Notes: generated by a model not told the origin, from the sequence alone. Counted from the first letter of the stretch, positions 1 to 17,721 are shown. The stretch is DNA of 64,000 nt from Methanobacteriota archaeon (GCA_016214785.1 JACRNV010000056.1:6843-70842), one strand, 5' to 3'. Numbers and translations: made by a program.

Positions 1-486
1 TTGCTACATGATGATACAAGATAGACACCTGCCCAATCCCCTGTCAACTCGTTATTTTCGATCCGACAGTTTTGGACGCTTTCCAACCATATTCCGGAAT
101 CAATTGGTGTGCTGTAAGTGCCTGTGACTGTGAACCCGCTGATATTCACCCAATTTGCAGTTACATAAATCACGTGAGGAGAACCGCTGGGGTTAATGGT
201 GGTATTTTGCCATCCTTGACCATATATGGATAATGACTTGTTGACAATTACCTCTTCGTTATATAGCCCAGCACTGACTTCGATGGTTTGACCGTCAGTT
301 GTGTTTGAAGCATCGATGGCTGCTTGGATTGTTGTAAAATATTCATTTGTCTGTAAGTTATGGACAGAATTAGCCGTTTGTAGGTTAGTTCCGAATCTAG
401 CAGTACCATCTTCAGTCGTGGAAATGATCCCCATGGTACTGCATGCAATTATAGAGCACATGCATATTACGAACGCACGTTTCATA
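1..486 (-). CDS. Secreted right-handed parallel beta-helix repeat protein, N-terminal part (start ATG at 486, runs off the window start); low-GC gene
   Basis: Reverse-strand translation from 486 gives MKRAFVICMCSIIACSTMG... (signal peptide), then beta-helix-like repeats (GxYNEEVIVNKSLSIYG, NISGFTVTG, ENNELTGDW). It is absent from the ORF track because it has no stop inside the window. GC is ~40% against ~63% in the flanks. Confidence 0.55.
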
Positions 487-597
487 TGTCCCTCAATATA
501 ATAGATAGAGAACAGGTCGTATATCTCTTTTTGGTTCCGCGCCCACGTCGAGCATACATTAATATCTCACCTCGCTCATGCGCCGCGCGGTGAGCCA

Positions 598-738
598 AAT
601 GGTCCAGGGTTATTGTGTGAAGTGCAAGGCCAAGACGGAGATCGCGGACGCGAAGAAGATAACGATGAAGAACGGCAAGCCGGCGACGCAGGGCAAGTGC
701 CCGAAGTGCGGCACGAAGGTCTTCAAGATAGGCGCCTA
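598..738 (+). CDS. Small CxxC...CxxC zinc-ribbon protein (46 aa; DUF5679-like)
   Basis: ATG at 598; [46 protein letters not shown]. Two Cys pairs, Lys-rich. Too short for the ORF track. Confidence 0.45.
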
Positions 739-764
739 AAACCATTCTTTTCGCGAGGGCGGGC

Positions 765-1904
765 ATGGAATTCGAACTGACGAAGGAGCACCTGATGCTC
801 GGGGACACCGTGCGCGAGTTCGCAGAGAAAGAGGTCGCTCCCCTGGCCCAGAAGATCGATGATTCCGGGGAGTTCCCATGGCAGACGCTGAAGAAGATGT
901 GGAGGCTCGGGCTCATGGGCATGACGCTGCCCAAGGAGTACGGCGGCCCGGGGAGCGACACCATCGCCTACGTCATCGCGCTCGAAGAGATCTCGAGGGC
1001 GTGCGCGTCCACGGGCGTCATCATGGCCGTGCACAACTCGGTCTGCGCCTACCCCATCTGGAAGTACGGCAGCGAGGACCAGAAGCGCCAGTACCTCAGG
1101 CGCATGGCTGAGGGCGGGGCGCTGGGCGCGTTCGCGCTGACGGAGCCGGGCGCGGGCTCGGACGCCGCGGGCGTGAGAACGACTGCCATAAAAGAAGGCG
1201 ACGAGTACGTCCTCAACGGCTCGAAAATATTCATCACGTCCGGCTCGGAGGCGCACATTCTACTGGTCGTGGCGTCGACCAATCCCGCTGCGGGCGGCAA
1301 GGGGCTGAGCGCCTTCGTCGTGGAAAAAGGGACGCCCGGCTTCGAGTACGGCTCCATCGAGGACAAGATGGGCGTGCGCGCGTCCGCGACCACAGAATTG
1401 GTCTTCGATGAATGCTACCTGCCTGGGACTAGCCTCCTTGGCAACGAGGGGGACGGGCTGAAGATAGCGCTCTCGACGCTGGACAGCGGGCGAACGGGCA
1501 TAGGCGCGCAGGCTCTCGGCATCGCCAGGGGCGCGTTCGAGGAGGCGGTGAAGTATGCGAAGGAGCGCGAGCAGTTCGGCAGGCCCATCGCGAGCCTGCA
1601 GGCAGTACAATGGAAGATCGCTGACATGGCAGTCAAGATCGAGGCGGCCAGGAACCTCGTCCACCGCGCGGCATGGCTAAAGGACAGGGGCCAGCCGTTC
1701 GGCAAAGAGGCGGCGATGGCGAAGCTGTACGCTTCAACCATCGCGAGGGAAGTCACGAACGACGCGGTGCAGATCCACGGCGGTTACGGATACACCAAGG
1801 ACTATCCCGTCGAGCGCTACTACCGGGACGCGAAGGTCACAGAGATTTACGAAGGCACGAGCGAGATCCAGCGCCTGGTAATCGCCAACAGCCTGCTGAG
1901 GTGA
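765..1904 (+). CDS. Acyl-CoA dehydrogenase (short/butyryl-chain type)
   Basis: 379 aa with classic acyl-CoA dehydrogenase motifs (TEPGAGSD, GxKx[18 protein letters not shown]) and a full-length alignable architecture. Confidence 0.93.
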
Positions 1905-1906
1905 TG

Positions 1907-2350
1907 GGCATCGACGCCGCTGGCTTCAGGCACGACCTCCGCGACAGCGAGAGATTTTTGCAGGACCTGAGAAAGGTATCCCCCGAGCTGCAGGCATTCG
2001 ACGCCGACGCGGTCATTGGTAAGCTCCATCTCATCTCCGCATGGGAAAGGGCGCAGCGCGCTTTCAAGGAAGGGCGGGCCTCGTGCTCGCGCATCGAGCT
2101 CGAGACGCTCTGCTACGCGGCTGGAGAAAGGCAAATCTCGGTGGCGATAGGGCTAGTAGGGGTGAATGATTCGACGAAGCGAATCGCCTTGCTTGGCCCT
2201 GCCGAGGCGATTAAGAGAGCGGAAAAGGAATTGAGCCTCCAGCGCGACGATTCGGCGCTGGAGCCGAGCGCGGAGAAGCTGAAGAGGCTCGGAATCGAGA
2301 GCGAGGACATGGTCTTCGAGCTGATGTCGATGCGAGAGGTGGACGGGTGA
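1907..2350 (+). CDS. Conserved hypothetical protein (~147 aa)
   Basis: ATG at 1907 directly follows the acyl-CoA dehydrogenase stop (GTG ATG). High GC3 coding signature. Its stop overlaps the downstream gene start at 2347. No family confidently recognised. Confidence 0.5.
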   Translation, partial: GIDAAGFRHDLRDSERFLQDLRKVSPELQAFDADAVIGKLHLISAWERAQRAFKEGRASCSRIELETLCYAAGERQISVAIGLVGVNDSTKRIALLGPAEAIKRAEKELSLQRDDSALEPSAEKLKRLGIESEDMVFELMSMREVDG

Positions 2351-2757
2351 GCGCAGAGATAAAACTCCGGACCAAGGGCGAAGGGGACGTGCGTGACATC
2401 ACCGCGGATGCGGCAAAGGCAGTCTCCGATTCCAAGGTAAAGGATGGAATCGCCACTATCTTCGTCGTAGGTTCCACCGCGGCCATCACGACGCTCGAGT
2501 TCGAGCCAGGCCTCGTGGCGGACATGCGCGGCGCCGCCGAGCGCCTCTTCCCGAAGGGCATCGAGTACGAGCACCACAGGCGCTGGGACGACGGCAACGG
2601 CCGCTCGCACGTGCGCGCGGCGTTCGTCGGGCCGAGCGTCACGATTCCAATAGTCAAAGGCAGGCTCGCCCTCGGCACGTGGCAGCAAATCATCCTCCTG
2701 GAATACGACGTCAGGCCCAGGGAGAGGACGGTAGTAGTCCAGGTCGTTGGCCGCTAG
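2347..2757 (+). CDS. YjbQ/UPF0047-family protein (secondary thiamine-phosphate synthase enzyme family)
   Basis: 136 aa; the characteristic ...GIATIFVVGSTAAITTLEFEPGL...HVRAAFVGPSVTIPI...GTWQQIILLEYD pattern. Confidence 0.85.
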   Translation: MSAEIKLRTKGEGDVRDITADAAKAVSDSKVKDGIATIFVVGSTAAITTLEFEPGLVADMRGAAERLFPKGIEYEHHRRWDDGNGRSHVRAAFVGPSVTIPIVKGRLALGTWQQIILLEYDVRPRERTVVVQVVGR

Positions 2758-2804
2758 CCAGCCCCGGACAATTGATATATCTGGCCGGCGCTATCCGCAG
2801 GCGC

Positions 2805-4151
2805 ATGGGACTATTCGAGCCCGGCGACGGCAAGCTCAGGGGGCAGATCCTCCGCTTCACGTGGCCGGTCATACTCACGAACCTGCTTCAGACTCTCACG
2901 GTCACGGTGAACCTCGTGATGGTCGGCAGGCTCGGGCCCGAGGAGGTCGCGGGAGTGGGGCTCGCGAGCCAGATAGTGTTCTTCGCCTACTCGGTCATGA
3001 TTGCCGTGAGCGCGGGGACCATCGCGCTCATAGCGCGGTACACCGGCGCGAAGCAGTTCGACAAGTCCGGCGGCGTGCTGCGCCAGTCGCTCATCCTCGC
3101 AGTGCTGCTGTCGATACCCATCATGCTCATGGGATGGTTCATGTCCGAGCAGATGATGTGGGTCTTCGGCGCGGAACCGGCCGTCCAATCCGTGGGCGCC
3201 GTCTACGTGAAATACATCTTCATGTTCGCCCCGTTCAGCTTCATGGAGTTCATATTCTCGGCCGCCCTGCGCGGGGCCGGGGACATGAAGACGCCGCTGT
3301 ACGTGGCGGTCCTCAACAACGTCGTGAACGTCGTCGTGGGGCAGCTCCTCATCTTCGGGCACTTCGGCTTCCCGGAGATGGGGGTCATGGGCGCGTCCCT
3401 GGCCAACGTCGCCGCGTTCACGGCGGGCACGTGCTCGTTCTTCGTGCTGCTGGCTCGGAAGAAGTTCCCCTTCAAGATGCCAAGGGGCAAGGGGCTCTTC
3501 GACCGCGAGGCCACGCGCAGGGTGCTCAGGATAGGATGGCCGTCCGCGCTCGAGCAGTTCGTCATACAGGCAGGTTTCCTTGTCTTCACGGCGATCATCG
3601 TCTACTTCGGGACGACCGCCCTCGCGGCGCACAACATAGGCCAGAGGGTGCAGAGCCTCGCTTTCATGCCCGGGATGGGGCTCTCCGTGGCCGCCACGGC
3701 TTTAGTGGGCTATAATCTCGGGACGGGGGAGCCGAAGAAGGCGGAGGAGTGCGGGTGGGAATCGACGAAGCTGGCGATATTGATGATGTGCGCCGTCGCC
3801 GCGTTCATGTTCGTCTTCGCCGAGCAGATGGCGTGGATATTCATAGACGACCAGCCCACTGTGCAACTTGCCAGCATATGGATAAGGCTGCAGGCCATAA
3901 GCATGCCAGCGGTCGGCATACACTTCACGCTCTCCGGCGCGCTCAGGGGTGCGGGGGACACGAGATGGCCGCTCGTCGCCTCGGCGATAGGCATCTACGC
4001 CGTGCGCCTGCCGCTCTCCGTATTCATCGGCATCTACCTCGGCATAGGCATCATGGGCGCGTGGCTGGCGTTCATCATCGAGTACTACGTGCGCTCCGTC
4101 GTCATCCTCTGGCGCTTCCGGCGGGGGAGCTGGAAGACGATAAAAGTCTGA
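2805..4151 (+). CDS. MATE-family multidrug/oligosaccharide efflux transporter
   Basis: Twelve predicted TM helices. MATE signatures (WPVILTNLLQ, two GAGD-containing halves). Start trimmed to ATG 2805 to avoid overlap with the YjbQ-family gene. Confidence 0.88.
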   Translation: MGLFEPGDGKLRGQILRFTWPVILTNLLQTLTVTVNLVMVGRLGPEEVAGVGLASQIVFFAYSVMIAVSAGTIALIARYTGAKQFDKSGGVLRQSLILAVLLSIPIMLMGWFMSEQMMWVFGAEPAVQSVGAVYVKYIFMFAPFSFMEFIFSAALRGAGDMKTPLYVAVLNNVVNVVVGQLLIFGHFGFPEMGVMGASLANVAAFTAGTCSFFVLLARKKFPFKMPRGKGLFDREATRRVLRIGWPSALEQFVIQAGFLVFTAIIVYFGTTALAAHNIGQRVQSLAFMPGMGLSVAATALVGYNLGTGEPKKAEECGWESTKLAILMMCAVAAFMFVFAEQMAWIFIDDQPTVQLASIWIRLQAISMPAVGIHFTLSGALRGAGDTRWPLVASAIGIYAVRLPLSVFIGIYLGIGIMGAWLAFIIEYYVRSVVILWRFRRGSWKTIKV

Positions 4152-4253
4152 TAACGTATTTTAGAGAAGACAAGGGACGCGAGCGCGCGTTCTGGGAAAG
4201 AAACTTTTATTTACCCCCCAATGCCTTCTGTTGCCTGTTTAAGGAGGGGCCCG

Positions 4254-7200
4254 ATGCGGTCCGTTTGGGGAACGCTCGCAGTTTGTCTGGCGGCACTAGT
4301 CGTGCTCTCGACGCTCTCGCTCCAGCCCGGCGCCAGGGCCGAGGACTCGGGCGCGACGGCCGTTGAGCCTGTCGTCCCCCCTCAGTTCGCCAACCTCGAG
4401 GTGCGCGACATCGCGTGGAGCGCGAACAACACGCTGTGCGTCGTCGTCGGAATCGATTGGTCGGCGACGGGGAACTGCGCGTTCTACAACGACACCAACA
4501 CAGCGAACGGCTGGCAGCCGCTCCCCTTCATCGTCGGGGCGAATGATAGATTGCTGGGCGTAGATTACGACCCAATCTCCAACTACTTCGTCATGGTAGG
4601 GGTGAATACAGGGACTTTCAACCAGCTCGTCTACCTCTGGTACCCGGGGAGCACCTGGTTCACCATCGCCACGCCCGGAGGCGCTTATGGCGCCTTCATG
4701 GACGTGGCCTGCATCCCCGCGACGAGGTTCATGGCCATCACCGACCAGGGGTTCGCCTTCTACTACCACTACCTCTCGCCGACGTGGTATTACAACGAGA
4801 CGAAAGGCGCCCTGCCTACCGGGGCTGTTTCGCTGAATAACGTCATGTACGACCCTAACGACGGCATCGTCCTCATGTCCGGCGGCTCAACACTGACCAA
4901 CGGGTGCGCGTACGGCGCTTGGACCCAGGACCTCTTCGCGGAGCGCTTCTACGCCTTCAACGTCGGCCCCAACTCATCGTTCCCGATGTTCAGGGGCGGC
5001 GACTGGTGCCAGCAGTACGACTACGGCGTCCTGGCAGGGAATAGGAACATCACGAAGATTACCGTCGATACCGACCCCTACAACTGGTTCGAGGACGATA
5101 TATACAGCGCCACATCTCCGTCGGCCAGGCGGGAGAGCACGATAGCATACTGCGGTGGGTCTGGCAAGATCGTCCTATTCGGAGGCTGGAACGGCACGTA
5201 CATGAGCGACACATGGGAATACAACGTCTTCAAGAAGACATGGACGAAGATGAACCCGGCGTCGTACCCAGAGGGCAGATACGGCCACGCCATGGCATAC
5301 GACAAGAACAGGATGGAGGTCATCCTATACGGCGGGCAGACCTCCGGCGGTCTGCAGCAGGACACGTGGACGTACAACATCACCAGCGGGATTTGGTTAA
5401 ACAGGGCTTCCAGCTCCCCCCTTGGCATCCTGAGAGACCATGCGATGACGTTCTGCGATTCGCTCGGGAGGGTCGTCTGCTACGGAGGCTACAACGCTGG
5501 GGCGAAGAATGACATGGCCAGCTGGGGAGGCGCGGCCTGGGCGACGATGAGCGTCGGCTCCCCAGGACCCCTGACCTACGAGCATGCCATGGCCTACGAC
5601 CCGTATTACAACCTCATCGTCATGTTCGGCGGCGTGGGCTTCGAGGGCTCGACCTACGTCTACAATTTCACAACCGGCTGGGCGGCAATATCACCACCGA
5701 CTATACCGCCATCGCGCAGCGGTCATACCGCCGCATACTCGTCCTATCTGGCCGGAGTCGCGATATACGGCGGCCAGTATTCGGGATATCTAGACGATGT
5801 CTGGTACTACAATTGCTCCGCGAATCGATGGTACAGCTACGTCCCGTGCAACTTGCCCGCCCAGCTGGCGACCCACGCGATGACCGCCGGATACAATGGT
5901 ATGCTCTACGTTTTCGGCGGATACAACTCTTCCGGGGCCGACCATTACCAGACCTACGTCCTGGGCAGGCAGCTGGACGTCAACGGTACCGTCCTCAGCG
6001 ATAATGCTACCAAGACCTGGTACGCCGTCTGCTGGTATCCATACACGGCAACGGCGGACACCGAGGCCCTGATAGTCGGCAACGACGGCAACATCAGCAG
6101 GCTCGACCCCAACGTCACGTACATACAGCCGATGGAGAACCCGTACGCCCAGCTAGGAAGGCACCTCTACGCCGTAGGCTGCAAGGCGCCCACGAGCCCG
6201 GGATACGCCTTCGCGCTCGGCTCGCCCGGCGGCGGAGTGAAGATAAACCAGGTCTCTGCGGGCAGCCAGGTCACGGTCGGGGCGGACGTCCCGCACGTCG
6301 TGTGGCTCAACCTGAACAACAGCGCGGGTTCACCGATTAACAACGGTAAAATAAACGTGGACAGCGGCTCGTACAGCAGCTATGTCGTAATGGACGCCGA
6401 GATTTACAGCAAATGGGGGACTGCCAACTTCACGCAGATAGACCTCTACGGCTGGCACGATGGCGGAAGTACCGGCGTAGACCAGCCGGTCACCATGGGA
6501 AACGGGTTCGATGCTCCAGGCGCCGAGAACCTCCGGCTCCACTACCGGTACACCGTCGCGGGTGGCATCCTGGCGCAGGTGTACCCGAACCATCCCGGCG
6601 ACCTCGAGTCCGTCCTCTGGAACGGGAACAGCTTCTACAATCCCTTCAATTTCACGAGTGCGTGGGTCAGGTTCTCGTTCTGGCCAATGAAGCAATTCAG
6701 GCACGCCCCCGGGCCGCCGGTATGGACCGAGCCCGCAGGCAGCAGGTACAGCTATGCCGTGAACGGCCAGGAGAACGCGAGCGCCCTCAACGACCCGTAT
6801 TCCTGGGACTTCAAGCTCAAGGTCACACTCGCGGACGGCATGAACTCCTCCGCATACGAGGAACTGGGCGTCTACAAGTACACGTACATCGGCGCAGGCA
6901 ACCTGCCCGGGGACCAATCGGGCAGCGGGCCGCCGGGCGGCACGGTCTACCTCGCCCCGACGGGGAACGTCTCATTCGTTTCCAACTGCAACTATTCCCT
7001 GAAAGTGTACATGGACGGCCTGCTCAGGGGCGTGAACGACGCGAACCGCACGATGCCCGCCTCGGCGCTGGGGGTGATGGGCGGCGACCTGCAGAACTGG
7101 TCCGTCCCCGGCACGCAGGCGCACTTCAACGGCACCGGCTCGGCGAACGCCCTATACCTCTTCGCCTGGAGCGGGGGATACCTGTCCCCGAGGGCGGCCG

Positions 7201-7322
7201 ACGTGCTCACCCATACGGGCCAAGGCGCCGTAGGGACGGTGGGATGGCGCTGCATCGTACCAATGGGTACGGCCGAGGACAGATACTCGACGACCGTGAC
7301 ATTCGTCCTGGAGCATGATTGA
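4254..7322 (+). CDS. Secreted Kelch-repeat (galactose-oxidase-like beta-propeller) glycoprotein, paralog 1
   Basis: GGAGG Shine-Dalgarno 7 nt before ATG 4254. Signal peptide MRSVWGTLAVCLAALVVLS. Kelch motifs (GGxxxxxxxDTWxYN..W, YGHAMAYD). Dozens of N-x-S/T sequons. Confidence 0.8.
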   Translation: MRSVWGTLAVCLAALVVLSTLSLQPGARAEDSGATAVEPVVPPQFANLEVRDIAWSANNTLCVVVGIDWSATGNCAFYNDTNTANGWQPLPFIVGANDRLLGVDYDPISNYFVMVGVNTGTFNQLVYLWYPGSTWFTIATPGGAYGAFMDVACIPATRFMAITDQGFAFYYHYLSPTWYYNETKGALPTGAVSLNNVMYDPNDGIVLMSGGSTLTNGCAYGAWTQDLFAERFYAFNVGPNSSFPMFRGGDWCQQYDYGVLAGNRNITKITVDTDPYNWFEDDIYSATSPSARRESTIAYCGGSGKIVLFGGWNGTYMSDTWEYNVFKKTWTKMNPASYPEGRYGHAMAYDKNRMEVILYGGQTSGGLQQDTWTYNITSGIWLNRASSSPLGILRDHAMTFCDSLGRVVCYGGYNAGAKNDMASWGGAAWATMSVGSPGPLTYEHAMAYDPYYNLIVMFGGVGFEGSTYVYNFTTGWAAISPPTIPPSRSGHTAAYSSYLAGVAIYGGQYSGYLDDVWYYNCSANRWYSYVPCNLPAQLATHAMTAGYNGMLYVFGGYNSSGADHYQTYVLGRQLDVNGTVLSDNATKTWYAVCWYPYTATADTEALIVGNDGNISRLDPNVTYIQPMENPYAQLGRHLYAVGCKAPTSPGYAFALGSPGGGVKINQVSAGSQVTVGADVPHVVWLNLNNSAGSPINNGKINVDSGSYSSYVVMDAEIYSKWGTANFTQIDLYGWHDGGSTGVDQPVTMGNGFDAPGAENLRLHYRYTVAGGILAQVYPNHPGDLESVLWNGNSFYNPFNFTSAWVRFSFWPMKQFRHAPGPPVWTEPAGSRYSYAVNGQENASALNDPYSWDFKLKVTLADGMNSSAYEELGVYKYTYIGAGNLPGDQSGSGPPGGTVYLAPTGNVSFVSNCNYSLKVYMDGLLRGVNDANRTMPASALGVMGGDLQNWSVPGTQAHFNGTGSANALYLFAWSGGYLSPRAADVLTHTGQGAVGTVGWRCIVPMGTAEDRYSTTVTFVLEHD
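7011..7150. repeat. ~140 nt near-identical tract shared by the two Kelch paralogs (copy A)
   Basis: …atggacggcctgctcaggggcgtgaacgacgcgaaccgcacgatgcc…cacttcaacggcaccggctcggcgaa… matches 10101..10240 almost base-for-base, while the rest of the two genes has diverged. Confidence 0.8.
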
Positions 7323-7377
7323 GGTGACAAGATGACATCCATATCATTTCTCAGCAAGGTTGGACGGGGGTGCAACG

Positions 7378-10300
7378 ATGGCGTCTAGGAAAATGTGCGT
7401 GCTGGTGGCCCTGATGCTGCTGGCGTCGTCGATGGCTCTGCTATGCACGAGGGCCGAGGACACCGGCACGAAGGGCGTGCAGCTCCTGTCCGGCCAGCCG
7501 TCCGACCTGGACACCTTCGACATCGCCTGGAACTCCAATTTCAGCTATGCCGTCGCCGTTGGCGAGAACATCCTGGGCGCCGACAACATCGCGTACTCAT
7601 ACAGCGCAAAAAGCGGCGCCTGGACCCCGCACGTTGATTGGGGGAGCACCGGAATATTATATGGCGTCGATTACGACCCGTACTCCGGATACTTCTACGC
7701 CGCTGGAGAGGACGGCATCTCAGGCATCATCGTCTACATAGACGCCTATGGGACCTACTGGAACACAATCAGCGCGCCGGCCGGAGTCAGCGTATTGAAA
7801 GACATACTCTTCATAGACAGCAACAGGTTCCTCGTCATCTCCGACACGAGGGCATTCATCTACGGTTTTTCCGGGTCCTGGGGCTACACCGAAGTGGCTG
7901 GCGCCCTTCCGCTGTCCGTTGGAAACCTACGCTCTGTCTTCGCCGACGATTCAGCGGGCGTCTTCTGGATCGTCGGCTCCGATGGGCTCGGGGGCGCAGA
8001 GTCCCTCGTGCTGTTCATGGGGGACATCAACAACGGCATATACGCCGCCTACGACTACACCCCGCAGGGGTACGCCCCGATGAACAGCGGCGACCACAGC
8101 CCGTCCGCGGACTATTCCCTCGTAGTCGGGGACGGGCAGGTGACGAAGCTCGCCGAGAGGCAGTACAGCTGGAACTTCACCCAGCTCCATCCGCGCGGGG
8201 GTCCGCCCGGCGTGAGGACGTCCCCGGCCATGGTCTACTGCCAGAACGACTTCAAGCTCGTGACCTTCGGCGGGTACGAAGGCGCGGGCATCTATCCTGA
8301 CGAGACGTGGGAATACAACCTTTTCACGAACAGATGGACCTCGTACTCGCCGACGCCCAGGCCCCCCGGCAGGCGCTACCATTCGATGGCGTACAACCCA
8401 GTATTGAACGAGATAATCCTATTTGGCGGCTTCGGCGCCAGCGGAGCCTTGCAAGACACGTGGAAGTACTTCCCGGCCAACCACACATGGTGGCAGGTCG
8501 CATCGACCACGCCCTTCGGCGCACGCTACGGGCACCAGCTCGTTTTCAACGATTGGACGCTCCGCATCGTAACCTACGGAGGCTACAACGGCAGCCCGAC
8601 GAATACGATGGCCGAATGGAACGGCGCAGCATGGGCCGTCCTATCACCGGGCGGGACGCCGCCGCCGGTCTATAATCATGCCATGGCCTACGACAAGGCG
8701 AGCCAGCACATCGTCCTCTTCGGCGGCGTCGGTAACCCAGGGCAGGACTCCGCGACATACGCCTACGACCCTTCGACAAACACTTGGGCTCAACTCTTTC
8801 CGGCAGTGTCCGCGCCCAAAAGGTCCTTCGGTTCGATGTCATGGAACTACGGCATACAGGGCGTATGCATGTACGGGGGCTTCGACACGGCTTGCCTGGA
8901 CCAGATATGGTACTACCGGTACCTGGACAACACATGGTACCTATGGCAGAACACGGGCGTGGCCCTGAGCCAGTCAAGCATAGCGGTCGACTACTATAAC
9001 GGCATCTACATCTTCGGGGGGGTGAACGATGGCGGCCAGTACACCAGGGACCTCTTCAAGTACGGCAGGATCCTCGACATGAGCGGCACCGGCCTCATCT
9101 TCAATAGGACTGGGTATATCTGGAGGGACGTCGACTGGTACACGGGCGGCACCGGGTCGCCTGACGCAATCATCGTCGGGAACAACGGCAACCTCAGCCA
9201 CCACTCGGTGGGGATGGAAGGCATCTCTTTCATCGAGAACACCATCACCGCGAACCAGTTCTTCGCCGTCGCCTGCAGGCCGCCGCAGAGCCCCGGCTAC
9301 GCCATCGCCATGGGCAACGCCGGATCCGGCGTCCGCATCAACCAGGTGTTCACCAGCTCGACGGTATCGGTCGATTCGGAGCTGCCGCACATCGCCTACA
9401 TGTATATCAACGACAGCGCCAACCAGCCGATGAACAACGCCAAAATCAACGTCGACGTTGGGACATACACCACCTGGTACAAGGTCGAGGCCGAGCTCTA
9501 CTACCTGCAGGGGCAGGCGAACTTCACGACCATCGACCTCTGGGGCTGGCGCGACAACGGCTCCCTGTACGGGGACGTACCGGCCATCCTGGGATCGGGC
9601 TTCGACAACGCCGGTTACGAGAATGTCCGGTTCCACTACACATACACTGTGCTTGGAAATGTATGGAGCCAGGTCTACCCCAACCACGCGGGGGAGATGG
9701 AATCGCAGATGTGGTTCGGCAACTGCTTCTACAACGTACTCAACTCGACGAGCACACGCATCACCTTCTGCTTCTACCCGCTGAAGCAGTTCAGGACCGC
9801 CAGCGGGCCGACCATCTGGTCCGAGCCTGCGGGCACCCGGTACGCCAGCGGCGTCCTTAACGGCCAGGAGAACGTCAGCGCCCTCAACGACCCCTTCACG
9901 TGGAACCTTAAAATGACGGCGAACACCAACGACGGGACGAACAACAGCGCGTACGACGAGTTCGGCGTCTACAAGTATACGTACATAGGGGCGGCGGACG
10001 TGCCCGCGACCATCTCTGGCAGCGGGCCACCGGGCGGCACGGTCTACCTGGCGCCGGAGCAGAACGTCACCTTCATCTCGAACTGCAACTACACGTTCAA
10101 AGTGTATATGGACGGCCTGCTGAGGGGCGTGAACGACGCGAACCGCACGATGCCTGCCTCGGCGCTGGGCGTCATGGGCGGCGACCTGCAGAACTGGTCC
10201 GTCCCCGGCACGCAGGCGCACTTCAACGGCACCGGCTCGGCGAATGCGCTCTATCTCTTCGGGGCGAACGCCACGTACAGGCTCCCCGAATTCACGGGGC

Positions 10301-10419
10301 CATCCACCTCCACGGGAATCGGGTCCGTCGGCACGGTGCGGTGGCGGTGCATCATCCCGATGGCCACGCCCGAGGACAGGTACACGACGACCGTCACCTT
10401 CTTGCTCGAGCACGATTGA
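7378..10419 (+). CDS. Secreted Kelch-repeat glycoprotein, paralog 2 (tandem to the 4254..7322 gene)
   Basis: Signal peptide MASRKMCVLVALMLLASSMALL. Same domain order as paralog 1 and a near-identical C-terminus (…YMDGLLRGVNDANRTMPASALGVMGGDLQNWSVPGTQAHFNGTGSANALYLF…LEHD). Alternative start ATG 7360. Confidence 0.8.
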   Translation: MASRKMCVLVALMLLASSMALLCTRAEDTGTKGVQLLSGQPSDLDTFDIAWNSNFSYAVAVGENILGADNIAYSYSAKSGAWTPHVDWGSTGILYGVDYDPYSGYFYAAGEDGISGIIVYIDAYGTYWNTISAPAGVSVLKDILFIDSNRFLVISDTRAFIYGFSGSWGYTEVAGALPLSVGNLRSVFADDSAGVFWIVGSDGLGGAESLVLFMGDINNGIYAAYDYTPQGYAPMNSGDHSPSADYSLVVGDGQVTKLAERQYSWNFTQLHPRGGPPGVRTSPAMVYCQNDFKLVTFGGYEGAGIYPDETWEYNLFTNRWTSYSPTPRPPGRRYHSMAYNPVLNEIILFGGFGASGALQDTWKYFPANHTWWQVASTTPFGARYGHQLVFNDWTLRIVTYGGYNGSPTNTMAEWNGAAWAVLSPGGTPPPVYNHAMAYDKASQHIVLFGGVGNPGQDSATYAYDPSTNTWAQLFPAVSAPKRSFGSMSWNYGIQGVCMYGGFDTACLDQIWYYRYLDNTWYLWQNTGVALSQSSIAVDYYNGIYIFGGVNDGGQYTRDLFKYGRILDMSGTGLIFNRTGYIWRDVDWYTGGTGSPDAIIVGNNGNLSHHSVGMEGISFIENTITANQFFAVACRPPQSPGYAIAMGNAGSGVRINQVFTSSTVSVDSELPHIAYMYINDSANQPMNNAKINVDVGTYTTWYKVEAELYYLQGQANFTTIDLWGWRDNGSLYGDVPAILGSGFDNAGYENVRFHYTYTVLGNVWSQVYPNHAGEMESQMWFGNCFYNVLNSTSTRITFCFYPLKQFRTASGPTIWSEPAGTRYASGVLNGQENVSALNDPFTWNLKMTANTNDGTNNSAYDEFGVYKYTYIGAADVPATISGSGPPGGTVYLAPEQNVTFISNCNYTFKVYMDGLLRGVNDANRTMPASALGVMGGDLQNWSVPGTQAHFNGTGSANALYLFGANATYRLPEFTGPSTSTGIGSVGTVRWRCIIPMATPEDRYTTTVTFLLEHD
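10101..10240. repeat. Near-identical tract, copy B (in paralog 2)
   Basis: See copy A; a few synonymous or near-synonymous differences only. Confidence 0.8.
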
Positions 10420-10463
10420 CGTACTTCAGAGCCGGCAAACCTCCACCGGGAAGGCCTCCGACG

Positions 10464-11102
10464 GCTGCCTTAGTGGCGTCCATCGCAGTCGCATTGTTTT
10501 TATCGTCCGGCTTCGGCTCCGCTGCGGAGCAGAGCATCGGCTACGGGGCGCGCGACGCCGGCGCCGCCCTGCAACCGGGCGAATACGAGGCCTGGATCTT
10601 CCCGACTGGCCCCGGGGATCTCGTGAGCGTGACGCTCCATTCGACCGCGCTGGCGGACTTCTACCTGACCAATTACAGCGGTTACTTAGCGTACAAGCTG
10701 GGGCAGTTCGGAACTGCCAACGATTTCTACTTTATCGGAGGCGAGTGCTCGAAGGTCAACGCCACAGGGATCTCCTACCTGTACAACCCTGCCGTGGACG
10801 ACATGCTGGTCGTCATCGCCGACAACCAGAACCGGACCGTCGAGGGGGCCGCCCCCGCCGGACCGGTGCAGATAACGGGCAAGATTGACGTGCGGCAGAG
10901 GTTCTGGAGCCTGAACAACATCCTGATCATCGGCGCCGTGGTTGCCGCGGCGGTCGTGCTGATGGCCTGGGCGGCATCGAGGTGGGCGCGCGCGCCCCCC
11001 GAGCACCGGCCGAAGATGGTCAGGATCGTTCGCCGGGCACGCGTTCAGAAGCCGCCCGAAAGAAAAGGGTTATCACGGAAGAAGGGGATGAGGGGGCGGT
11101 GA
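10464..11102 (+). CDS. Hypothetical type-I membrane-anchored protein (signal peptide plus C-terminal TM and basic tail)
   Basis: In-frame TTG/GTG start at 10464/10467 after the Kelch-2 stop. LVASIAVALFLSSGFGSAAE signal-like segment. C-terminal ILIIGAVVAAAVVLMAWAA TM followed by an R/K-rich tail. Confidence 0.4.
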   Translation, partial: AALVASIAVALFLSSGFGSAAEQSIGYGARDAGAALQPGEYEAWIFPTGPGDLVSVTLHSTALADFYLTNYSGYLAYKLGQFGTANDFYFIGGECSKVNATGISYLYNPAVDDMLVVIADNQNRTVEGAAPAGPVQITGKIDVRQRFWSLNNILIIGAVVAAAVVLMAWAASRWARAPPEHRPKMVRIVRRARVQKPPERKGLSRKKGMRGR

Positions 11103-11106
11103 GCAC

Positions 11107-11703
11107 GTGTACACAGACGAGGAAGGCGAGGCCGCCGTTAGGCTCGCGCGCGGCACGATCGACGCCGTGGTCGTAGGGAAGATGCCGGCGATGCCCCATC
11201 TCGGGGGGAGGTTCGACGCCAAGTCCGGGGCGTTCGTGACCATCGAAACATATCCGGCGCTGAAGCTCCGCGGCTGCATCGGCTACCCGGAGCCCATCTT
11301 CGCGCTCAAGGAGGCGCTCGCCCGCGCCGCGGCAGGGGCCACGGAGGACCCGCGCTTCCCGAGGCTCGCCGAGACGGAGCTGGACAAGGTCGTCGTCGAC
11401 GTCAGCCTTCTGACGCCTCCTGAGCTGATAAGGATCGACAAGCTGCGCAACCTGCCGAGGGAGGTGAAGGTCGGCAGGGACGGCCTCATCGCCGAGCGCC
11501 ACGGCCTCAGGGGGCTCCTGCTCCCGCAGGTCGCCACCGACTACAACCTTTCTCCCGAGGAGTTCCTCTCTGAGACATGCATGAAGGCCGGGCTGGACGC
11601 CGACGCCTGGCTCGTGGAGGGCACGCGCATGTTCAGGTTCGGCGCCGAGGTCTTTTGTGAGAAAGAGCCCCGCGGCAAGGTGGAAAGGAAGGTGCTTGGG
11701 TAG
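11107..11703 (+). CDS. AMMECR1-domain protein
   Basis: GTG start; 198 aa with conserved AMMECR1 core (…LRGCIGYPEP…GLLLPQVA…). Confidence 0.88.
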   Translation: MYTDEEGEAAVRLARGTIDAVVVGKMPAMPHLGGRFDAKSGAFVTIETYPALKLRGCIGYPEPIFALKEALARAAAGATEDPRFPRLAETELDKVVVDVSLLTPPELIRIDKLRNLPREVKVGRDGLIAERHGLRGLLLPQVATDYNLSPEEFLSETCMKAGLDADAWLVEGTRMFRFGAEVFCEKEPRGKVERKVLG

Positions 11704-12929
11704 TGGCCTACGACCTCGTCGTCTACGGCAGGATACCGCAGGGCTACACGACCGTGAAGGGATGCGTGGCCGTGAAGGACGGGAAAATAATCAAGCTCGG
11801 GCGCTCGCTGACCGGCGACAGGGTCATGGACATGGGGGGCATGCTCGTGCTCCCGGCGGCGGTGGATATGCACGTCCATATGCGCGAGCCCGGCTTCGCG
11901 CACAAGGAGGACTTCGGCTCTGGCACGATGTCGGCCGCCTTTGGCGGGGTGACTTGCGTGGCCGACATGCCGAACACGAATCCCCTGACAAAGAGCAAGG
12001 AAGGGCTCGAAGAAAAGCTCGATGCCATGAAGAAGGCCAACGTCGACTGCGCCGCCTACGGGCTGCTCTCCCCCGATTCGGATTTGCGCGCGCTGGCGAA
12101 GGGCACGCTCGGCCTGAAGCTCTACATGTACGAACACCCGCCCGAGACTTGGCCCGAGCTGCTTGCGATGGCCGGCGAGAGGTTCCTCTCCGTGCATGCC
12201 GAGCACCCCGCTTATCTCGATAACATCAAGGTCACCACGCTCGAAGAGCATCTGAGGGCACGGCCGCACGAAGCCGAGGTCGAGGCCGTGCGGGCGCTCG
12301 CCGAGTCCGGCAGGGGCGTGCACGTAGCTCACGTCAGCACCGTCGATTCGTGGCTCCTCCTCGCCAACACCAAGTGCACGTGCGAGGCCACGCCCCACCA
12401 CCTTTACCTGACATGCAGGTCGCGCCTGGGGCCGCTGGGCAAGATGAACCCGCCGCTCAGGACGAGGCACGACCGCGACTCCCTCTGGGACGCGCTGCGC
12501 GTGGGGGAGATTGACGTCGTCGCCAGCGACCATGCCCCCCACACCCTGGAAGAGAAGAGGGAGTTCTCGACCGCGCCATCGGGCGTGCCGGGCGTCGAGA
12601 CTATCTTCCCCCTCATGCTCAAGGCCGTGCGCGACGGGGAGCTGGAAATGCGCCGCTGCCTGGAGGCGTGCTGCGAGCGCCCGGCGCAGCTGCTCGGGCT
12701 GAAGAAGGGGAAGCTCGCAGAGGGCTACGACGCCGACATCATCGCCATAGACCTGAAGGCCTCGCGCAAGGTCAGGGGGGACGAGCTGCACTCGAAGTGC
12801 GGCTGGACGCCGTTCGAGGGGTTCGAGCTGCCCTTCCCGAAGCTCGTCATGCTGCGCGGGACGCCGATAATCGCCGACGGCGAGCTGGCGGAGGAGCGCA
12901 AGGGCAAGATTATCCTGCCTATCGCCTGA
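11703..12929 (+). CDS. pyrC: Dihydroorotase / cyclic amidohydrolase
   Basis: 408 aa. Metal-binding HxH (DMHVHMREPG) and the conserved …VASDHAPH… Asp/His motif of the amidohydrolase superfamily, with dihydroorotase-type length and layout. Confidence 0.88.
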   Translation: MAYDLVVYGRIPQGYTTVKGCVAVKDGKIIKLGRSLTGDRVMDMGGMLVLPAAVDMHVHMREPGFAHKEDFGSGTMSAAFGGVTCVADMPNTNPLTKSKEGLEEKLDAMKKANVDCAAYGLLSPDSDLRALAKGTLGLKLYMYEHPPETWPELLAMAGERFLSVHAEHPAYLDNIKVTTLEEHLRARPHEAEVEAVRALAESGRGVHVAHVSTVDSWLLLANTKCTCEATPHHLYLTCRSRLGPLGKMNPPLRTRHDRDSLWDALRVGEIDVVASDHAPHTLEEKREFSTAPSGVPGVETIFPLMLKAVRDGELEMRRCLEACCERPAQLLGLKKGKLAEGYDADIIAIDLKASRKVRGDELHSKCGWTPFEGFELPFPKLVMLRGTPIIADGELAEERKGKIILPIA

Positions 12930-13197
12930 TGTCGAACCCGGCGAACTCGCCCGTCGGCCTCTCCCATCTCCCCTCGTGGCGCTCGACCCTGGCGTTCGGC
13001 TGCGAGGTGGCGCACCATTCTATGAGGGCTTTGACCGATTCCTCCTCCCCTTCGAAGACCGCCTCGACAGAGCCGTCCGGCACGTTGCGCACCCAGCCCG
13101 TGACGCCCGTCTCCTCTGCTTTCTTACACGTGTTGTCCCTGAAGAACACGCCCTGCACCCTGCCGAAGAAGAGGACGTGGGCGCGCGCTTGGGCCAT
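12919..13197 (-). CDS. acyP: Acylphosphatase
   Basis: Start MAQARAHVLFFGRVQGVFFR; acylphosphatase signatures (VQGVFFR, GWVRNxxDGSVE). 92 aa. Confidence 0.85.
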   Translation of the reverse strand: MAQARAHVLFFGRVQGVFFRDNTCKKAEETGVTGWVRNVPDGSVEAVFEGEEESVKALIEWCATSQPNARVERHEGRWERPTGEFAGFDIRR

Positions 13198-13264
13198 GAA
13201 TGAAGGTAATGCGAGCGCGCCCAAAAACGTTGCGGGTGTGACGGAATGCCTTTTCGCAAATCCC

Positions 13265-14187
13265 TTACAGAACCCAATCCTTCTCCCGCGGCTGCGGCGC
13301 GCTCGCCTCTGCGGCGTACTGGCCGCAGTTGCTCCCTATCCGGTTCTCATCGAGCGCGCCGATGCTCAGTATCGTCTCGAACCCGAGGCGCTCGAAGCTT
13401 GCAACTAGTGCGGAGGCCGTCTCGGGCCTCTCCGCGTCGAAGCCCGGCTCCAAACCGCTCCACTGCGCCCTCCGCGTCGGGTTCAGGGGCGTTATCTTGA
13501 CGAGGAAATCGTCGGCGCCGAAGGCCTTGGCCACCGCTGCGGCATCGATGGGCACTCCCTTGATGGCCATGAAGTTCAGCGTCACCTTCTTGTCCCCCTC
13601 GGAGCGGAAGGACCGCCCCTGCGCGGCTATCTCCTCGAGGGAGAGCGCGCCCGCCGGCATGAGGGCGCGCCTCGCGCTCTCATCGGTGGAATGTATGGAG
13701 AACTGCAGCTGGAACCGACCGCGGAAATGCCTGTCCTTGACAATTTTCAAATCGTCGAGGAACCGCGCCGAGCCCGACGGCGCGATGGTCGAGACGCTCA
13801 CCGTGAGGTTGCCGTGTCCTTCACTGCCCAGGCCGTCGAGGAAGCCTACGACCGAGGGGTTGAGCGCCGGTTCCCCCATCCTCGCCAATTGGAGCTTCCA
13901 TTTCTTTGTTTCTGGCTTTCCGCCATCGAACCTCGCGCGCGCGAGGTGCTCGACCTGCGCGCGCATCTCTTCTTCGGTAAGTGGTCGCCTGTAACCCCCG
14001 CCGGCGTCGCACATCGCGCACTCCATCGGGCAGCCGGCCAGCGTCGAGATGATGTTCACCCACTTCTCCGCGCGCGGCCTCGGCGGCTGGAGCGATTCGA
14101 CGAACTCGATCCTGCTGCCGTCCTTTAGCTCGGCGACGTAGACCTTAGCCAAGTCGTCGCGCCCGTGCTCGGCGATGACCCTCATGC
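13265..14187 (-). CDS. RlmN/Cfr-family radical SAM enzyme (N-terminally short form)
   Basis: Start MRVIAEHG (ATG 14185-14187), with a 4-nt ATGA overlap to the upstream gene. CxxxCxxC as CPMECAMC, then MGEPALNP, …FSIHSTDES…, …ITPLNP… and the C-terminal …SNCGQYA… Cys typical of RlmN/Cfr. The long N-terminal extension in the raw ORF is GC-frame noise. Confidence 0.78.
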
Positions 14188-15030
14188 CCCGCCCCCGATC
14201 TCCCTGTCGAGGGCGAGCGCAGCCTCGACGCCATCGCCGACGGCCATCGCGACCTGCCCGAGCCTCCCGCGCCGGGCGTCGCCGGCGGTTTTGAATCGCC
14301 GTGTCTTTGGCCCGATGCCATCCATCTCCGGGAGAGCGGGTTCGCGCCCGACGGCTACTAAAAGCGCATCGAACGTCCCCTTGCCGCCATGCCATTCGAT
14401 GCCTATTTTCGAGCCCGCCTTACGCGCCCCTTTCATCTCTGACCCGATGAAAGCTATTCTCTCTTCGTTTTTCGCCTCATCGAGCAGAGCCTTGATGGCG
14501 CAAAGTGGCGAGCGGTGCAGAACCGTTGCCGCGATACCCTTGTCCGATAAATTGAGCGCGTAGTCCAGCGCAGCCTCGCCGCCGCCGAGGACGCAGATCT
14601 TCGAGCCTTTCCTGAGCTCCTTCATCTTGGAAATCTCGTAGAAGATGAGGCGTGCATTCTCCAGCCCTTTCTCCCCCCCGAAGCCCGCCCTCTTCGGCGA
14701 TGTTCCCGTGCAAACTATAACTCCATCGAACCGCTCCCGCGAATCGGTTGTATGGATTTCGAATGTCCCTTTGATCAATTTCACGCTCTCGACGTTCTCT
14801 CTGAGAATCTCAATGTCCCATCGCCGTGCCTGCCTCACCATCAGGCTTGCCAATTCATCGCCCTTGATTCCCTTCCCGAACCCGGGATAGTTCTCGACGA
14901 GCCGGGCGTTCCGCAGCGCGCCGCCTGGTTTACCGTCCTCATAAATCGTGACGGCGTGCCCGCATCGCGCCAGCTGTACAGCGGCCGCGAGCCCGGCCGG
15001 GCCCGCTCCCACGACGGCCACGCTAGCCAT
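14182..15030 (-). CDS. FAD/NAD(P)-dependent pyridine-nucleotide-disulfide oxidoreductase (thioredoxin-reductase-like)
   Basis: N-terminal VAVVGAGPAGLAAA dinucleotide fold; second GxGxxA (VLGGGEAALDYA); C-terminal GD motif (…TAGDARRG…). Confidence 0.85.
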   Translation of the reverse strand: MASVAVVGAGPAGLAAAVQLARCGHAVTIYEDGKPGGALRNARLVENYPGFGKGIKGDELASLMVRQARRWDIEILRENVESVKLIKGTFEIHTTDSRERFDGVIVCTGTSPKRAGFGGEKGLENARLIFYEISKMKELRKGSKICVLGGGEAALDYALNLSDKGIAATVLHRSPLCAIKALLDEAKNEERIAFIGSEMKGARKAGSKIGIEWHGGKGTFDALLVAVGREPALPEMDGIGPKTRRFKTAGDARRGRLGQVAMAVGDGVEAALALDREIGGGA

Positions 15031-15700
15031 CGGCGGCGCTCACCATCCCGACCGTTTCATCTGCTGTGACGATGAACGCGAAGCCGTGCGCCAGAGTCGC
15101 CAGCGCCGACACCTGCAGGCGCTCGTTGATCGTCGCGGTCCCGTCGGCTATTACATGGACTCGAAAGCCGCGCTGGAACGCCTCGCGCGCGGTGGTCTCG
15201 CAACAGAGGTCGGTCATCACGCCGCAGACGAAGACCGAGTCGGCGCCCAGCTCCTTCAGCCTCGCGCCTATATCGGTGGACTCGAACGCCCCGTAGAGGT
15301 GCTTGTCGAGTATGACTGTGTCCTTGGGCAATCGCACGCGCGGGTCGATGGCCGTCAACTCACTCGTCGGGTCGAGGCGTACGCCCCACCACTCGACCGT
15401 GGGGTCGACGTCGTCGCGCGACGACTTGTACCTCGTGGCGAATATCGGCCGTCTTGCCTTTGAAAACGCATCTATCACGCGCTGCACGCGCCCGAGGACA
15501 TGCCTGGAAGCGGGCAGGTAGGCGGGCGCGCCTTTCTCGAGAAAGTAGCGCTGCATGTCGACAACGATAAGCGAGGGCGCGTACGGCCTCGGCGGCGCGT
15601 TAATTCCCAAAAGGCCTGACATCGACTGGCGCCACCGCTCGACGCTCTTATCCAAATCGTGGCCGTAGTCCTCATGCTCGCCCGCGCCTTTCCACTCCAT
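15023..15700 (-). CDS. Isochorismatase-family cysteine hydrolase
   Basis: …LIVVDMQRYF…; catalytic Cys context VFVCGVMTDLCCETTAREA; 225 aa. Overlaps the downstream oxidoreductase by 8 nt (operon). Confidence 0.85.
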   Translation of the reverse strand: MEWKGAGEHEDYGHDLDKSVERWRQSMSGLLGINAPPRPYAPSLIVVDMQRYFLEKGAPAYLPASRHVLGRVQRVIDAFSKARRPIFATRYKSSRDDVDPTVEWWGVRLDPTSELTAIDPRVRLPKDTVILDKHLYGAFESTDIGARLKELGADSVFVCGVMTDLCCETTAREAFQRGFRVHVIADGTATINERLQVSALATLAHGFAFIVTADETVGMVSAADG

Positions 15701-15734
15701 GCCTCACCTGGGGCGCTTCCTGGTTTACCGAGCT

Positions 15735-15832
15735 GGGGGCGCAAACAGTGCTCCTACTCTGTATCTGTATGGCGGATAAGAATATTGCGCTCCTACATTG
15801 ACGGAGATGTTTGCGGGCGCAAACAGTGCTCC
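15735..15832. promoter_or_regulatory. Divergent promoter region with an 18-nt direct repeat (GGGCGCAAACAGTGCTCC at 15735-15752 and 15815-15832) and a TATA-like box (tataaatag ~15912)
   Basis: Two exact copies 80 nt apart between the minus-strand isochorismatase operon and the plus-strand gene at 15948. TATA-like box ~30 nt upstream of ATG 15948. Confidence 0.4.
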
Positions 15833-15947
15833 AACGCGGAACACCGGGGACGAAAATTTTTACCCCTTCTTCGGAAAATAAGGGAGTCTGATTGGCGGCC
15901 CTCACTAGCTATAAATAGTCTATTGCAGATACCCGGACGGTGGAGAT

Positions 15948-16511
15948 ATGCAATATCGCAACATAGTGGGGTTGGCAGTGGTATTTTGCGTCCTTGCGGC
16001 GGGAATGGTGTCTGCGAATTCGTACACAGTGCCGGCAACGGGCTACGATTCCACGGACACCCTCGGAGCATTGGACCTCTGGAACGACTATCACGTGAGC
16101 GCGGCCTCGGGAAAGAAGATATCGTACTCGTTCGCCGTGCAGGGGAGCGGGACGATCAAGGTGCTGTTCGTGAAAGGGTCGACGTTCACCCTCAACAGCC
16201 AGTATCTTGTCGTGTATAGCCGAGACACGCCGACCACATCCTACTCCGGCACTTTCTCCGTAGGCTCGGACGATGGTACGCAATTCACTATCGTTGTCAC
16301 CAGCGACCTTACGCAGAACGTGACCTACACCGCGAAGATTACAGTCGCCGACACCCCAGTGACGGACTATCTTCTCGGTGCGGGCATTCTGGTCGGCATA
16401 ATCGTTGTCGTCGTGATTATCGGCGCATTCCTCCGCGGCAGAAAGAAGAAAGCGAGCCAGGCGCCGTCCCATGCTCCCCAGCAGCATATCCCCCCTCCGC
16501 CTGCACGCTAG
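15948..16511 (+). CDS. Small secreted/membrane-anchored Thr/Ser-rich protein (signal peptide, C-terminal TM, Pro-rich tail)
   Basis: MQYRNIVGLAVVFCVLAAGMVSANS signal. …LLGAGILVGIIVVVVIIGAFLRGRKKK TM plus basic anchor. 187 aa. Confidence 0.6.
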   Translation: MQYRNIVGLAVVFCVLAAGMVSANSYTVPATGYDSTDTLGALDLWNDYHVSAASGKKISYSFAVQGSGTIKVLFVKGSTFTLNSQYLVVYSRDTPTTSYSGTFSVGSDDGTQFTIVVTSDLTQNVTYTAKITVADTPVTDYLLGAGILVGIIVVVVIIGAFLRGRKKKASQAPSHAPQQHIPPPPAR

Positions 16512-16602
16512 GGAAACTCGGATAGCCAGCCCATCGAAACATAAACGATAGAAGCAGGGCAGCATACCTGCCGTACGCAAGTTACAACGCCGTGATTCCC
16601 GT

Positions 16603-17718: not shown

Positions 17719-17721
17719 GGC

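Follow-up and report, generated by a model that had tools for sequence, protein, structure and literature searches.

Two tandem Kelch-type genes in an archaeal contig

We analyzed a 64,000-nucleotide (nt) stretch of DNA from a Methanobacteriota archaeon (GCA_016214785.1, JACRNV010000056.1:6843-70842), hereafter the window, in which two adjacent genes, A and B, share a near-identical tract close to their 3′ ends. Gene A (4254..7322, + strand) is an open reading frame (ORF) whose translation is a predicted secreted Kelch-propeller protein of 1022 amino acids (aa), or 1033 aa if read from an in-frame ATG at 4221. Its paralog, gene B (7378..10419, + strand), encodes 1013 aa from the ATG at 7378 or 1019 aa from a TTG at 7360. 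Both ORFs are intact and co-oriented on the same strand, with an intergenic gap of 55 nt. A previous reading of this DNA, made without database searches (the sequence-only reading), had described two adjacent genes of shared architecture and moderate similarity, and our analysis agrees: the ORFs lie in tandem, both carry Kelch domains, and they are 46% identical in protein and 58% identical in DNA.

Two candidate signals were picked out by eye upstream of A: a putative archaeal TATA-like box, TTTTATTTA (4205-4213, + strand), and a Shine-Dalgarno-like GGAGGGG (about 4243-4249, + strand) ahead of the ATG at 4254. Because ATG 4221 starts only approximately 8 nt past the TATA-like TTTTATTTA, and GGAGGGG precedes ATG 4254 instead, the placement of these putative signals favors ATG 4254 as the start of A. 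The product of B from ATG 7378 is NCBI HZB92_08050, from a "Euryarchaeota archaeon" metagenome-assembled genome (MAG). With either start codon, protein A was not found in the public protein collection, while its neighbor B from the same MAG is present there. The source record may list A under another annotation or as a pseudogene; the ORF of A is intact in the window.

Each protein starts with a positively charged N-terminus and a hydrophobic core of approximately 20 residues (Kyte-Doolittle hydropathy 2.07 and 2.37), followed by an ARA↓ED (A) or TRA↓ED (B) site, an arrangement typical of a predicted Sec signal peptide. Beyond a propeller-like N-terminal region, both proteins have Kelch domains at about aa 280-580 (PF24681, E = 6e-37 in A and 2e-33 in B; 127.6 and 116.1 bits against a cut-off of 50), with PF13415, PF13418, and PF01344 also above threshold. 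In A, this region is a six-bladed Kelch beta-propeller (5088..5960, + strand; aa about 290-580; PF24981, E = 4e-24) with six xxGG blade motifs: LFGGW, LYGGQ, CYGGY, MFGGV, IYGGQ, and VFGGY. It is followed by a C-terminal module of 452 aa (5964..7319, + strand; limits approximate), hereafter the C-module, made up of approximately two propeller-like blades and then two beta-sandwich domains. Neither the N-terminal approximately 250 aa nor the C-terminal approximately 450 aa matched any family in Pfam or NCBIfam. The C-module was modeled with a predicted local distance difference test (pLDDT) score of 93; a full-length AlphaFold2 model built from 4 sequences was unusable (pLDDT 41).

The sequence-only reading had called both proteins extremely rich in N-glycosylation sequons. 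They are enriched (24 in A and 18 in B, against 9.6 ± 2.8 and 10.0 ± 2.8 in shuffled sequences), although for B the word "extremely" goes somewhat too far. When position lists were compared, eight sequons in the last approximately 230 aa aligned between A and B. The same reading had noted no obvious C-terminal anchor, and we likewise found none: past residue 60, the highest 19-aa Kyte-Doolittle values are 1.16 (A) and 1.31 (B), with no hydrophobic anchor, and there is neither a C-terminal transmembrane helix nor a PGF-CTERM-type sorting signal, the C-terminus (...TVTFVLEHD) being a confidently modeled beta-sandwich strand. Surface-layer (S-layer) models in Pfam and NCBIfam gave no match, and Foldseek comparisons with the S-layer structures HPI and SbsB were weak (E = 6e-3 to 9e-3, TM-score 0.09-0.22). 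Judged from their sequences, A and B lack an anchor, are probably Sec-exported and N-glycosylated, and are likely to be cell-surface glycoproteins.

A near-identical tract shared by A and B

In a sliding-window nucleotide alignment of A and B, the check that had been proposed for this locus, divergence was not uniform and an identity spike appeared. In 30-codon windows, nucleotide identity was 0.89-0.97 at A 6990-7125, compared with mostly about 0.4-0.7 in the rest of the gene, up to 0.8 just upstream of the spike, and 0.53-0.59 after it. The best-scoring segment (A 7002-7147 = B 10099-10244) contains 5 mismatches in 146 nt, and the longest uninterrupted match covers 71 nt (A 7077-7147 = B 10174-10244). 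When codon columns were permuted, 0/5000 permutations reached the value of either the 71-nt run or the 146-nt segment. A near-identical segment of approximately 140 nt had been reported here, and it is borne out, as is the peptide quoted for it, which is correct by translation. The coordinates given for it in B (10101-10240) are in error by 7 nt. With the correct A-to-B offset of 3097, A 7011-7150 corresponds to B 10108-10247.

In the codon alignment, 54 consecutive residues are identical between A and B. We refer to this stretch (A 7002-7163; B 10099..10260, + strand, at the same offset) as the tract. The 9 nucleotide differences over its codons (A 7010, 7025, 7058, 7073, 7076, 7148, 7151, 7154, and 7157) are all synonymous. 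Across the whole tract, identical codons occur at 39/48 identical residues, versus 23 expected. The rate of synonymous substitutions per synonymous site (dS) is 0.27 in the tract and the corresponding nonsynonymous rate (dN) is 0, compared with a dS of 1.12 (near saturation) and a dN of 0.57 over the remainder of the genes.

We compared A/B with 20 other pairs drawn from seven Kelch-type genes of the same family (four genomes; 21 pairs with A/B) and with 7 pairs from two other tandem arrays. The best 150-nt window was 0.95 identical for A/B and 0.57-0.76 for the others. The next strongest signal was a 32-nt exact run between L6a and L6c in a conserved WYDQGNMTTDFP motif. No segmental homogenization was seen in the three-gene array on L006, the four-gene array on L008, or the pair on L009. 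We had considered such homogenization as a general habit of the C-module family and rejected it on these arrays.

The near-identical stretch between A and B is real. It was read from an assembled contig of a MAG, and an assembler can collapse paralogs, or switch between paralogs or strains, at a shared repeat; that protein A is missing from the public collection while B is present would fit such an error. A collapse, however, would give exact identity, and the two copies differ by 9 in-frame synonymous changes. A switch would swap everything downstream, yet both flanks of the tract are copy-specific and both ORFs are intact. We consider an assembly artifact highly improbable.

A single-copy ortholog in a second archaeon

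Among 5.8 billion protein clusters, the only other full-length relative of A and B was P0002, hereafter ortholog C, encoded on L001 from a Thermoplasmatota MAG. C is single-copy and lies within an equivalent gene neighborhood. Species-representative genomes yielded no closer relative of A or B, returning only the contig already known and unrelated bacterial Kelch proteins. The organisms that carry A/B and C are not close to each other: identity between their AMMECR1 proteins is 64%.

A, B, and C lie at equal distances from one another (46, 46, and 44% identity), and outside the tract the columns shared by two of the three are distributed in a star-like manner (AB 130, AC 141, and BC 127). Along the gene, the A-B identity profile tracks the A-C and B-C profiles with a sole exception, A 7002-7064. 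We therefore describe the tract in two parts, a 5′ part 1 (A 7002-7064) and a 3′ part 2 (A 7065-7163). In the model of the C-module, the tract corresponds to residues 347-400 in the last beta-sandwich: part 1 forms two short strands and a loop, and part 2 is made of two strands joined by a 22-residue loop that bears two sequons.

Pairwise sharing also varies by region when A 4254-7001, B 7378-10098, and L001 are compared. Over the N-terminal and Kelch parts, B and C have more in common (46 and 45) than A and B do (29 and 33); in the C-module ahead of the tract, it is the A-B and A-C pairings (54 and 59) that are above B-C (30).

The 3′ part of the tract is conserved in the ortholog

Part 2 in A (7065..7163, + strand; ALGVMGGDLQNWSVPGTQAHFNGTGSANALYLF) holds the 71-nt exact run and is a subfamily-conserved motif with two sequons, NWS and NGT; the NWS/T and NGT sequons are kept in the ortholog. 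The motif, GVMGGDLQNW..PGTQAHFNGTGSANALYLF, is almost constant, codons included, in the single-copy ortholog of the other MAG. It is 30/32 identical in P0002, and over part 2 the ortholog is 80-90% identical in aa and 82-87% identical in nt. Codons are identical at 25/31 positions for A-B, 22/27 for A-C (12-13 expected, P = 1e-4), and 18/27 for B-C, and the respective dS values are 0.29, 0.33, and 0.66, compared with 1.1-2.2 elsewhere. Because part 2 is as codon-conserved in the ortholog as it is between the paralogs, it speaks for constraint and provides no evidence for conversion. From these codon comparisons, part 2 is apparently under unusually strong purifying selection that is specific to the A/B/C subfamily and extends to the choice of codons. 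The codons in common are mostly preferred ones.

This constraint does not extend to the C-terminal module as a whole, as the sequence-only reading had allowed: the loop just past the tract is only 30-45% identical, and the tract as a whole is of average variability among 58 wider family members. In the GVMGGDLQNW..ANALYLF motif, synonymous sites are kept between two distant genomes, yet the segment is averagely variable in the wider family. Exchange of the segment between lineages is a speculative and improbable source of the codon-level conservation of the motif between genomes. A scan of Joint Genome Institute (JGI) metagenomes for the motif returned no relative.

Conservation of this kind could also come from a nucleotide-level element within the coding sequence, such as an RNA structure, an antisense transcript, or a regulatory site, that holds the stretch identical. 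The synonymous conservation of part 2 between genomes fits this idea (A-ortholog 22/27 codons; dS 0.33 versus about 2), as does the position of the motif approximately 170-320 nt upstream of the start of the next gene in A, B, and the ortholog. We rejected RNA structure as an explanation: the predicted folding of the stretch is poorer than that of shuffled controls (z = +1.9 and +1.2), and an Rfam search of the region gave no family match. More generally, 9/9 differences between A and B are synonymous in the + frame, with no replacement, which points to protein-level selection; most shared codons are the preferred ones; and an element of this kind would not account for part 1 being different in the ortholog. 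A nucleotide-level element is thus, in our view, a very unlikely cause of the identity.

The 5′ part of the tract is shared by A and B only

Part 1 in A (7002..7064, + strand; KVYMDGLLRGVNDANRTMPAS...) shows protein identity only between A and B. Its peptide (KVYMDGLLRGVNDANRTMPASAL) is 100% identical in these two proteins, and ortholog C is 30-45% identical over the same positions. The tract has 17 variable columns, and every one is AB-only, with 0 AC-only and 0 BC-only; as the AB share of variable columns outside the tract is 0.198, the probability of 17/17 is about 1e-12.

We polarized these differences with four distant relatives as outgroups, namely the three genes of the L006 tandem array and one gene from L007. 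C and the four outgroups carry a D-x-N-L-I-G-Q..G-Q-x-I form at part 1, and A and B both carry GLLRGVNDANRTMPASAL with a one-codon insertion, which is derived relative to C and the outgroups. Polarized changes common to A and B number 9 within 13 codons of the patch, versus 28 over approximately 930 aligned codons outside the tract. Between A and B, part 1 has 3 synonymous and 0 nonsynonymous differences, and the codons are identical at 16/19 identical residues versus 9-10 expected (P = 0.005).

Part 1 is of average variability across the 58 wider family members (entropy 2.42 bits; mean of the module, 2.36), and constraint across the family is thus no explanation for its identity in A and B. 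Identity that is found in A and B only, is derived, and is confined to 7002-7064 is a signature of ectopic gene conversion, and we think it probable that part 1 was converted between the tandem copies. The sequence-only reading had proposed either recent gene conversion or strong constraint for the whole segment. Both appear to operate, conversion at 7002-7064 and constraint at 7065-7163, and it is the word "recent" that has to be given up, since the tract has a dS of about 0.27 with 9 synonymous differences. The presence of 9 synonymous and 0 nonsynonymous changes since the event suggests strong purifying selection on the segment.

The donor need not have been A or B: both copies could have received the patch from another paralog or by lateral transfer, with no direct A-to-B conversion. 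C-module genes do occur in arrays of up to four, the 64-kb window is part of a genome, and the motif in the ortholog has codons ending in G or C at 28/32 positions (approximately 0.88), compared with 0.71 for its whole gene. There is, however, no third copy in the window and no closer relative in the 5.8 billion protein clusters, the species-representative genomes, or the JGI metagenomes, and such an event would still be gene conversion with another donor. We give a third source little credence.

Constraint and probable conversion in one tract

We propose that A and B are old tandem paralogs of an uncultured Thermoplasmatota archaeon, with the predicted domain order of signal peptide, propeller-like N-terminal region, six-bladed Kelch propeller, and 450-aa C-terminal module. 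The 3′ approximately 100 nt of the tract would encode a strand-loop-strand motif with two sequons, kept by purifying selection in A, B, and the ortholog. The 5′ approximately 63 nt, a family-variable segment, would have been homogenized by non-reciprocal homologous recombination between the tandem copies. The nucleotide-conserved motif may have given the homology at which recombination started, and from there the conversion tract would have spread in the 5′ direction over the variable segment; later changes in the tract would all have been synonymous. This combination of constraint and conversion is, in our assessment, the likely explanation of the tract.

Several observations weigh against it. 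The synonymous evidence for part 1 comes from 19 codons with approximately 15 synonymous sites, so the pair-specific synonymous signal rests on few sites. The count of 0 nonsynonymous versus 9 synonymous differences is stricter than the family-wide variability of the patch predicts. In part 2, synonymous conservation with the ortholog is at the level seen between the paralogs, so it lends no support to conversion, and codon conservation can evidently arise there by other means. Finally, polarized characters outside the tract lean weakly to A+B (28 versus 19 and 14 for the other two pairings, P about 0.08), mainly in the C-module upstream of the tract (16 versus 7 and 6). With one ortholog and four distant outgroups, the branching order of A, B, and C may, weakly, be one in which A and B are sisters.

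Sisterhood of A and B would make a history without conversion possible, a burst followed by a freeze. The two genes would have been duplicated just after the split from the ortholog lineage, and the patch would have changed on their common stem and then been frozen, for example by a shared partner. Besides the lean of the polarized characters, this history fits a tract that has had no amino-acid change since it was shared, and part 2 demonstrates that extreme codon-level conservation can arise without conversion. It sits poorly with the star-like unpolarized counts (130/141/127) and with bootstrapped distances, which favor A-B in only 281/2000 replicates. It also has to fit more than 9 replacements plus an indel into 13 codons along a short stem, with full stasis afterward in an averagely variable segment, and to accommodate a codon identity in part 1 (16/19) above the 9-10 expected. 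We regard this history as unlikely and prefer constraint plus conversion. The varying signal along the gene and the lean toward A+B could reflect older, eroded conversion, unequal rates, or true sisterhood.

A family of C-terminal modules

We searched a profile of the C-terminal part of A and B exhaustively against 1.84 billion representative clusters and found 121 representatives at E <= 1e-3, with 38 at E <= 1e-30. Where a match runs to the end of the profile, it stops within a few residues of the protein C-terminus. The family module, to which A and B belong, occupies approximately 350-450 aa at the extreme C-terminus and has the motifs AYDEFG.Y.YT, LPG..SGSG.PG, and V.GG. Family proteins are approximately 720 aa (no Pfam domain), approximately 1000 aa (one Kelch propeller), or approximately 1380 aa (two Kelch propellers) in length, and many relatives are without any Kelch domain. 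All organism-named members come from Thermoplasmata, Thermoplasmatota, or "Methanobacteriota" MAGs. Named members carry no functional names; most are called "hypothetical protein" and one is called "kelch repeat-containing protein." The C-module family is undescribed, and its building blocks, propellers and immunoglobulin-like sandwiches, are common.

A word-index search with the C-terminal 400 aa returned nothing, which looks like a limit of that method, as the exhaustive hidden Markov model (HMM) search gave 121 representatives. When phmmer was run with the N-terminal region of A, it matched other Kelch-type members only, so that N-terminal homology across the family is unsupported. We found nothing on the C-module family in an article on Thermoplasmatales cell surfaces (PMC12448462).

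Tandem arrays occur elsewhere in the family. On L006, a related metagenomic contig, lie three tandem Kelch-type genes (42-9339; 1020, 1038, and 1041 aa) in which the stop of one gene overlaps the start of the next; these genes are mutually 34-38% identical. L008 carries four tandem C-module members (8001-18208; 735, 734, 719, and 1185 aa), of which the 1185-aa member has Kelch repeats. This array adjoins three GT4 glycosyltransferases, a radical-SAM protein, an epimerase, and a MatE-like gene, and no identity spikes were present among its four genes.

Gene neighborhood and a small membrane-protein partner

Upstream of A lies a gene for a MatE/MOP-superfamily transporter (2679..4151, + strand; Pfam MatE, E = 5e-72). 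The same position is taken by a MatE/MurJ-like gene in L007 and by an MFS transporter gene in L001. Downstream of B is a small conserved partner gene (10416..11102, + strand), followed by AMMECR1 and amidohydrolase genes (11107..12929, + strand; assigned by Pfam), which serve as downstream synteny markers and are in the same order in L001, L006, and L007. The gene order in the four genomes is a transporter (MatE/MurJ-like or MFS), one to three Kelch-type genes, the small protein, AMMECR1, and amidohydrolase.

The small protein in the window was recovered against its L001 equivalent by tblastn. It has a signal peptide, an ectodomain of approximately 150 aa, one transmembrane helix (Kyte-Doolittle hydropathy 2.69), and a basic tail; the ectodomain has the motifs DFYLTN.SGYLAY and VVI.DN.NRT, and the tail ends in ..SRK(K/R).M..R. 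It matched no Pfam or NCBIfam family. An HMM built from the four orthologs gave a single hit in each of the window, L001, L006, and L007, in every case immediately behind the last Kelch gene. The candidate TTG start of the gene overlaps the TGA stop of B, and L001 has an ATGA overlap. A and B are probably co-transcribed with this gene. Its product could hold A and B at the cell surface, a possibility that we raise tentatively and on balance doubt.

Approximately 22 kb from the glycoprotein genes, the window contains a 12-kb island (32400-45000) of 31-41% GC content, compared with approximately 61% GC for the genome. It encodes five GT4 glycosyltransferases together with a Wzx/MurJ-like flippase, an FkbM methyltransferase, and a DUF354 protein, and it also has a 583-aa ORF without a Pfam match. 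This region has the look of a glycan-biosynthesis island that is variable or was gained by horizontal transfer. The window also holds a tRNA-Asn(GTT) (21199-21272, − strand) and a 163-nt tRNA match (61653-61815, − strand). The length of the latter implies an intron, as is typical of archaea, and is consistent with an archaeal origin of the window.

Comparison with known systems

The Kelch part of A and B meets the Pfam thresholds of Kelch-repeat beta-propeller proteins, but it makes up only approximately 28% of each protein. One or more propellers followed by tandem beta-sandwiches, as in A and B, are also the arrangement of integrin-alpha-like proteins, FimH, and Sdr-type adhesins, and the top Foldseek matches were FimH (E = 1e-5), integrin alpha-V (E = 1e-4), and SdrD (E = 2e-4). 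TM-scores of 0.14-0.31 and identities of 6-12% point to generic fold likeness. We identified no ligand-binding motif in A or B.

In the Sulfolobales, a large anchor-less glycoprotein, SlaA, is held by a small membrane-anchored partner, SlaB. The arrangement at the present locus is similar by functional analogy only: a large, sequon-rich, anchor-less protein is paired with the gene of a small single-pass membrane protein. Glycosyltransferase clusters also lie near genes of the family, beside the L008 array and approximately 22 kb downstream in the window. Unlike in the Sulfolobales system, A and B have no sequence or fold similarity to SlaA, SlaB, or any S-layer family (Foldseek S-layer E about 1e-2).

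The locus points to a family of large proteins, predicted to be secreted, without a Pfam or NCBIfam model, comprising approximately 120 representative clusters with a confidently modeled C-module, and its Kelch-bearing branch has a strictly conserved small membrane-protein partner. If A and B are indeed envelope components, the patch would mark a candidate interaction surface. One could go further and speculate, at rather long odds, that the C-module and the small single-pass membrane protein form a hitherto undescribed two-part cell-envelope system of uncultured Thermoplasmatota. The last beta-sandwich would then dock on the shared anchor, with the homogenized patch and the conserved glycosylated loop as the docking surface, and conversion and selection would keep the paralogs compatible.

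Gene conversion between tandem paralogs is well known, and A and B, read as we propose, are a further example of this process. Long-lasting segmental conversion of old tandem paralogs has been described for mtrA-1/mtrA-2 in Methanococcales and Methanomicrobiales (Wang et al. 2015, PMC4632066). A prokaryote survey of concerted evolution describes the phenomenon as rare and as often involving members of one complex (Wang & Chen 2018, PMC6053082). As with mtrA-1/mtrA-2, A and B are old duplicates in one putative operon in which part of the gene appears homogenized and the rest has diverged, with a conflict between paralog and ortholog relationships in one segment. The differences are that the mtrA-1/mtrA-2 conversion covers a whole domain, whereas the A/B tract spans approximately 60-150 nt in a single genome, and that A and B are predicted surface proteins rather than core metabolic enzymes. 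The tract is not matched in other tandem arrays of the C-module family. Its two parts illustrate that near-identity at synonymous sites alone is insufficient to call conversion, and it offers a compact case in which constraint and conversion can be separated within one 150-nt stretch.

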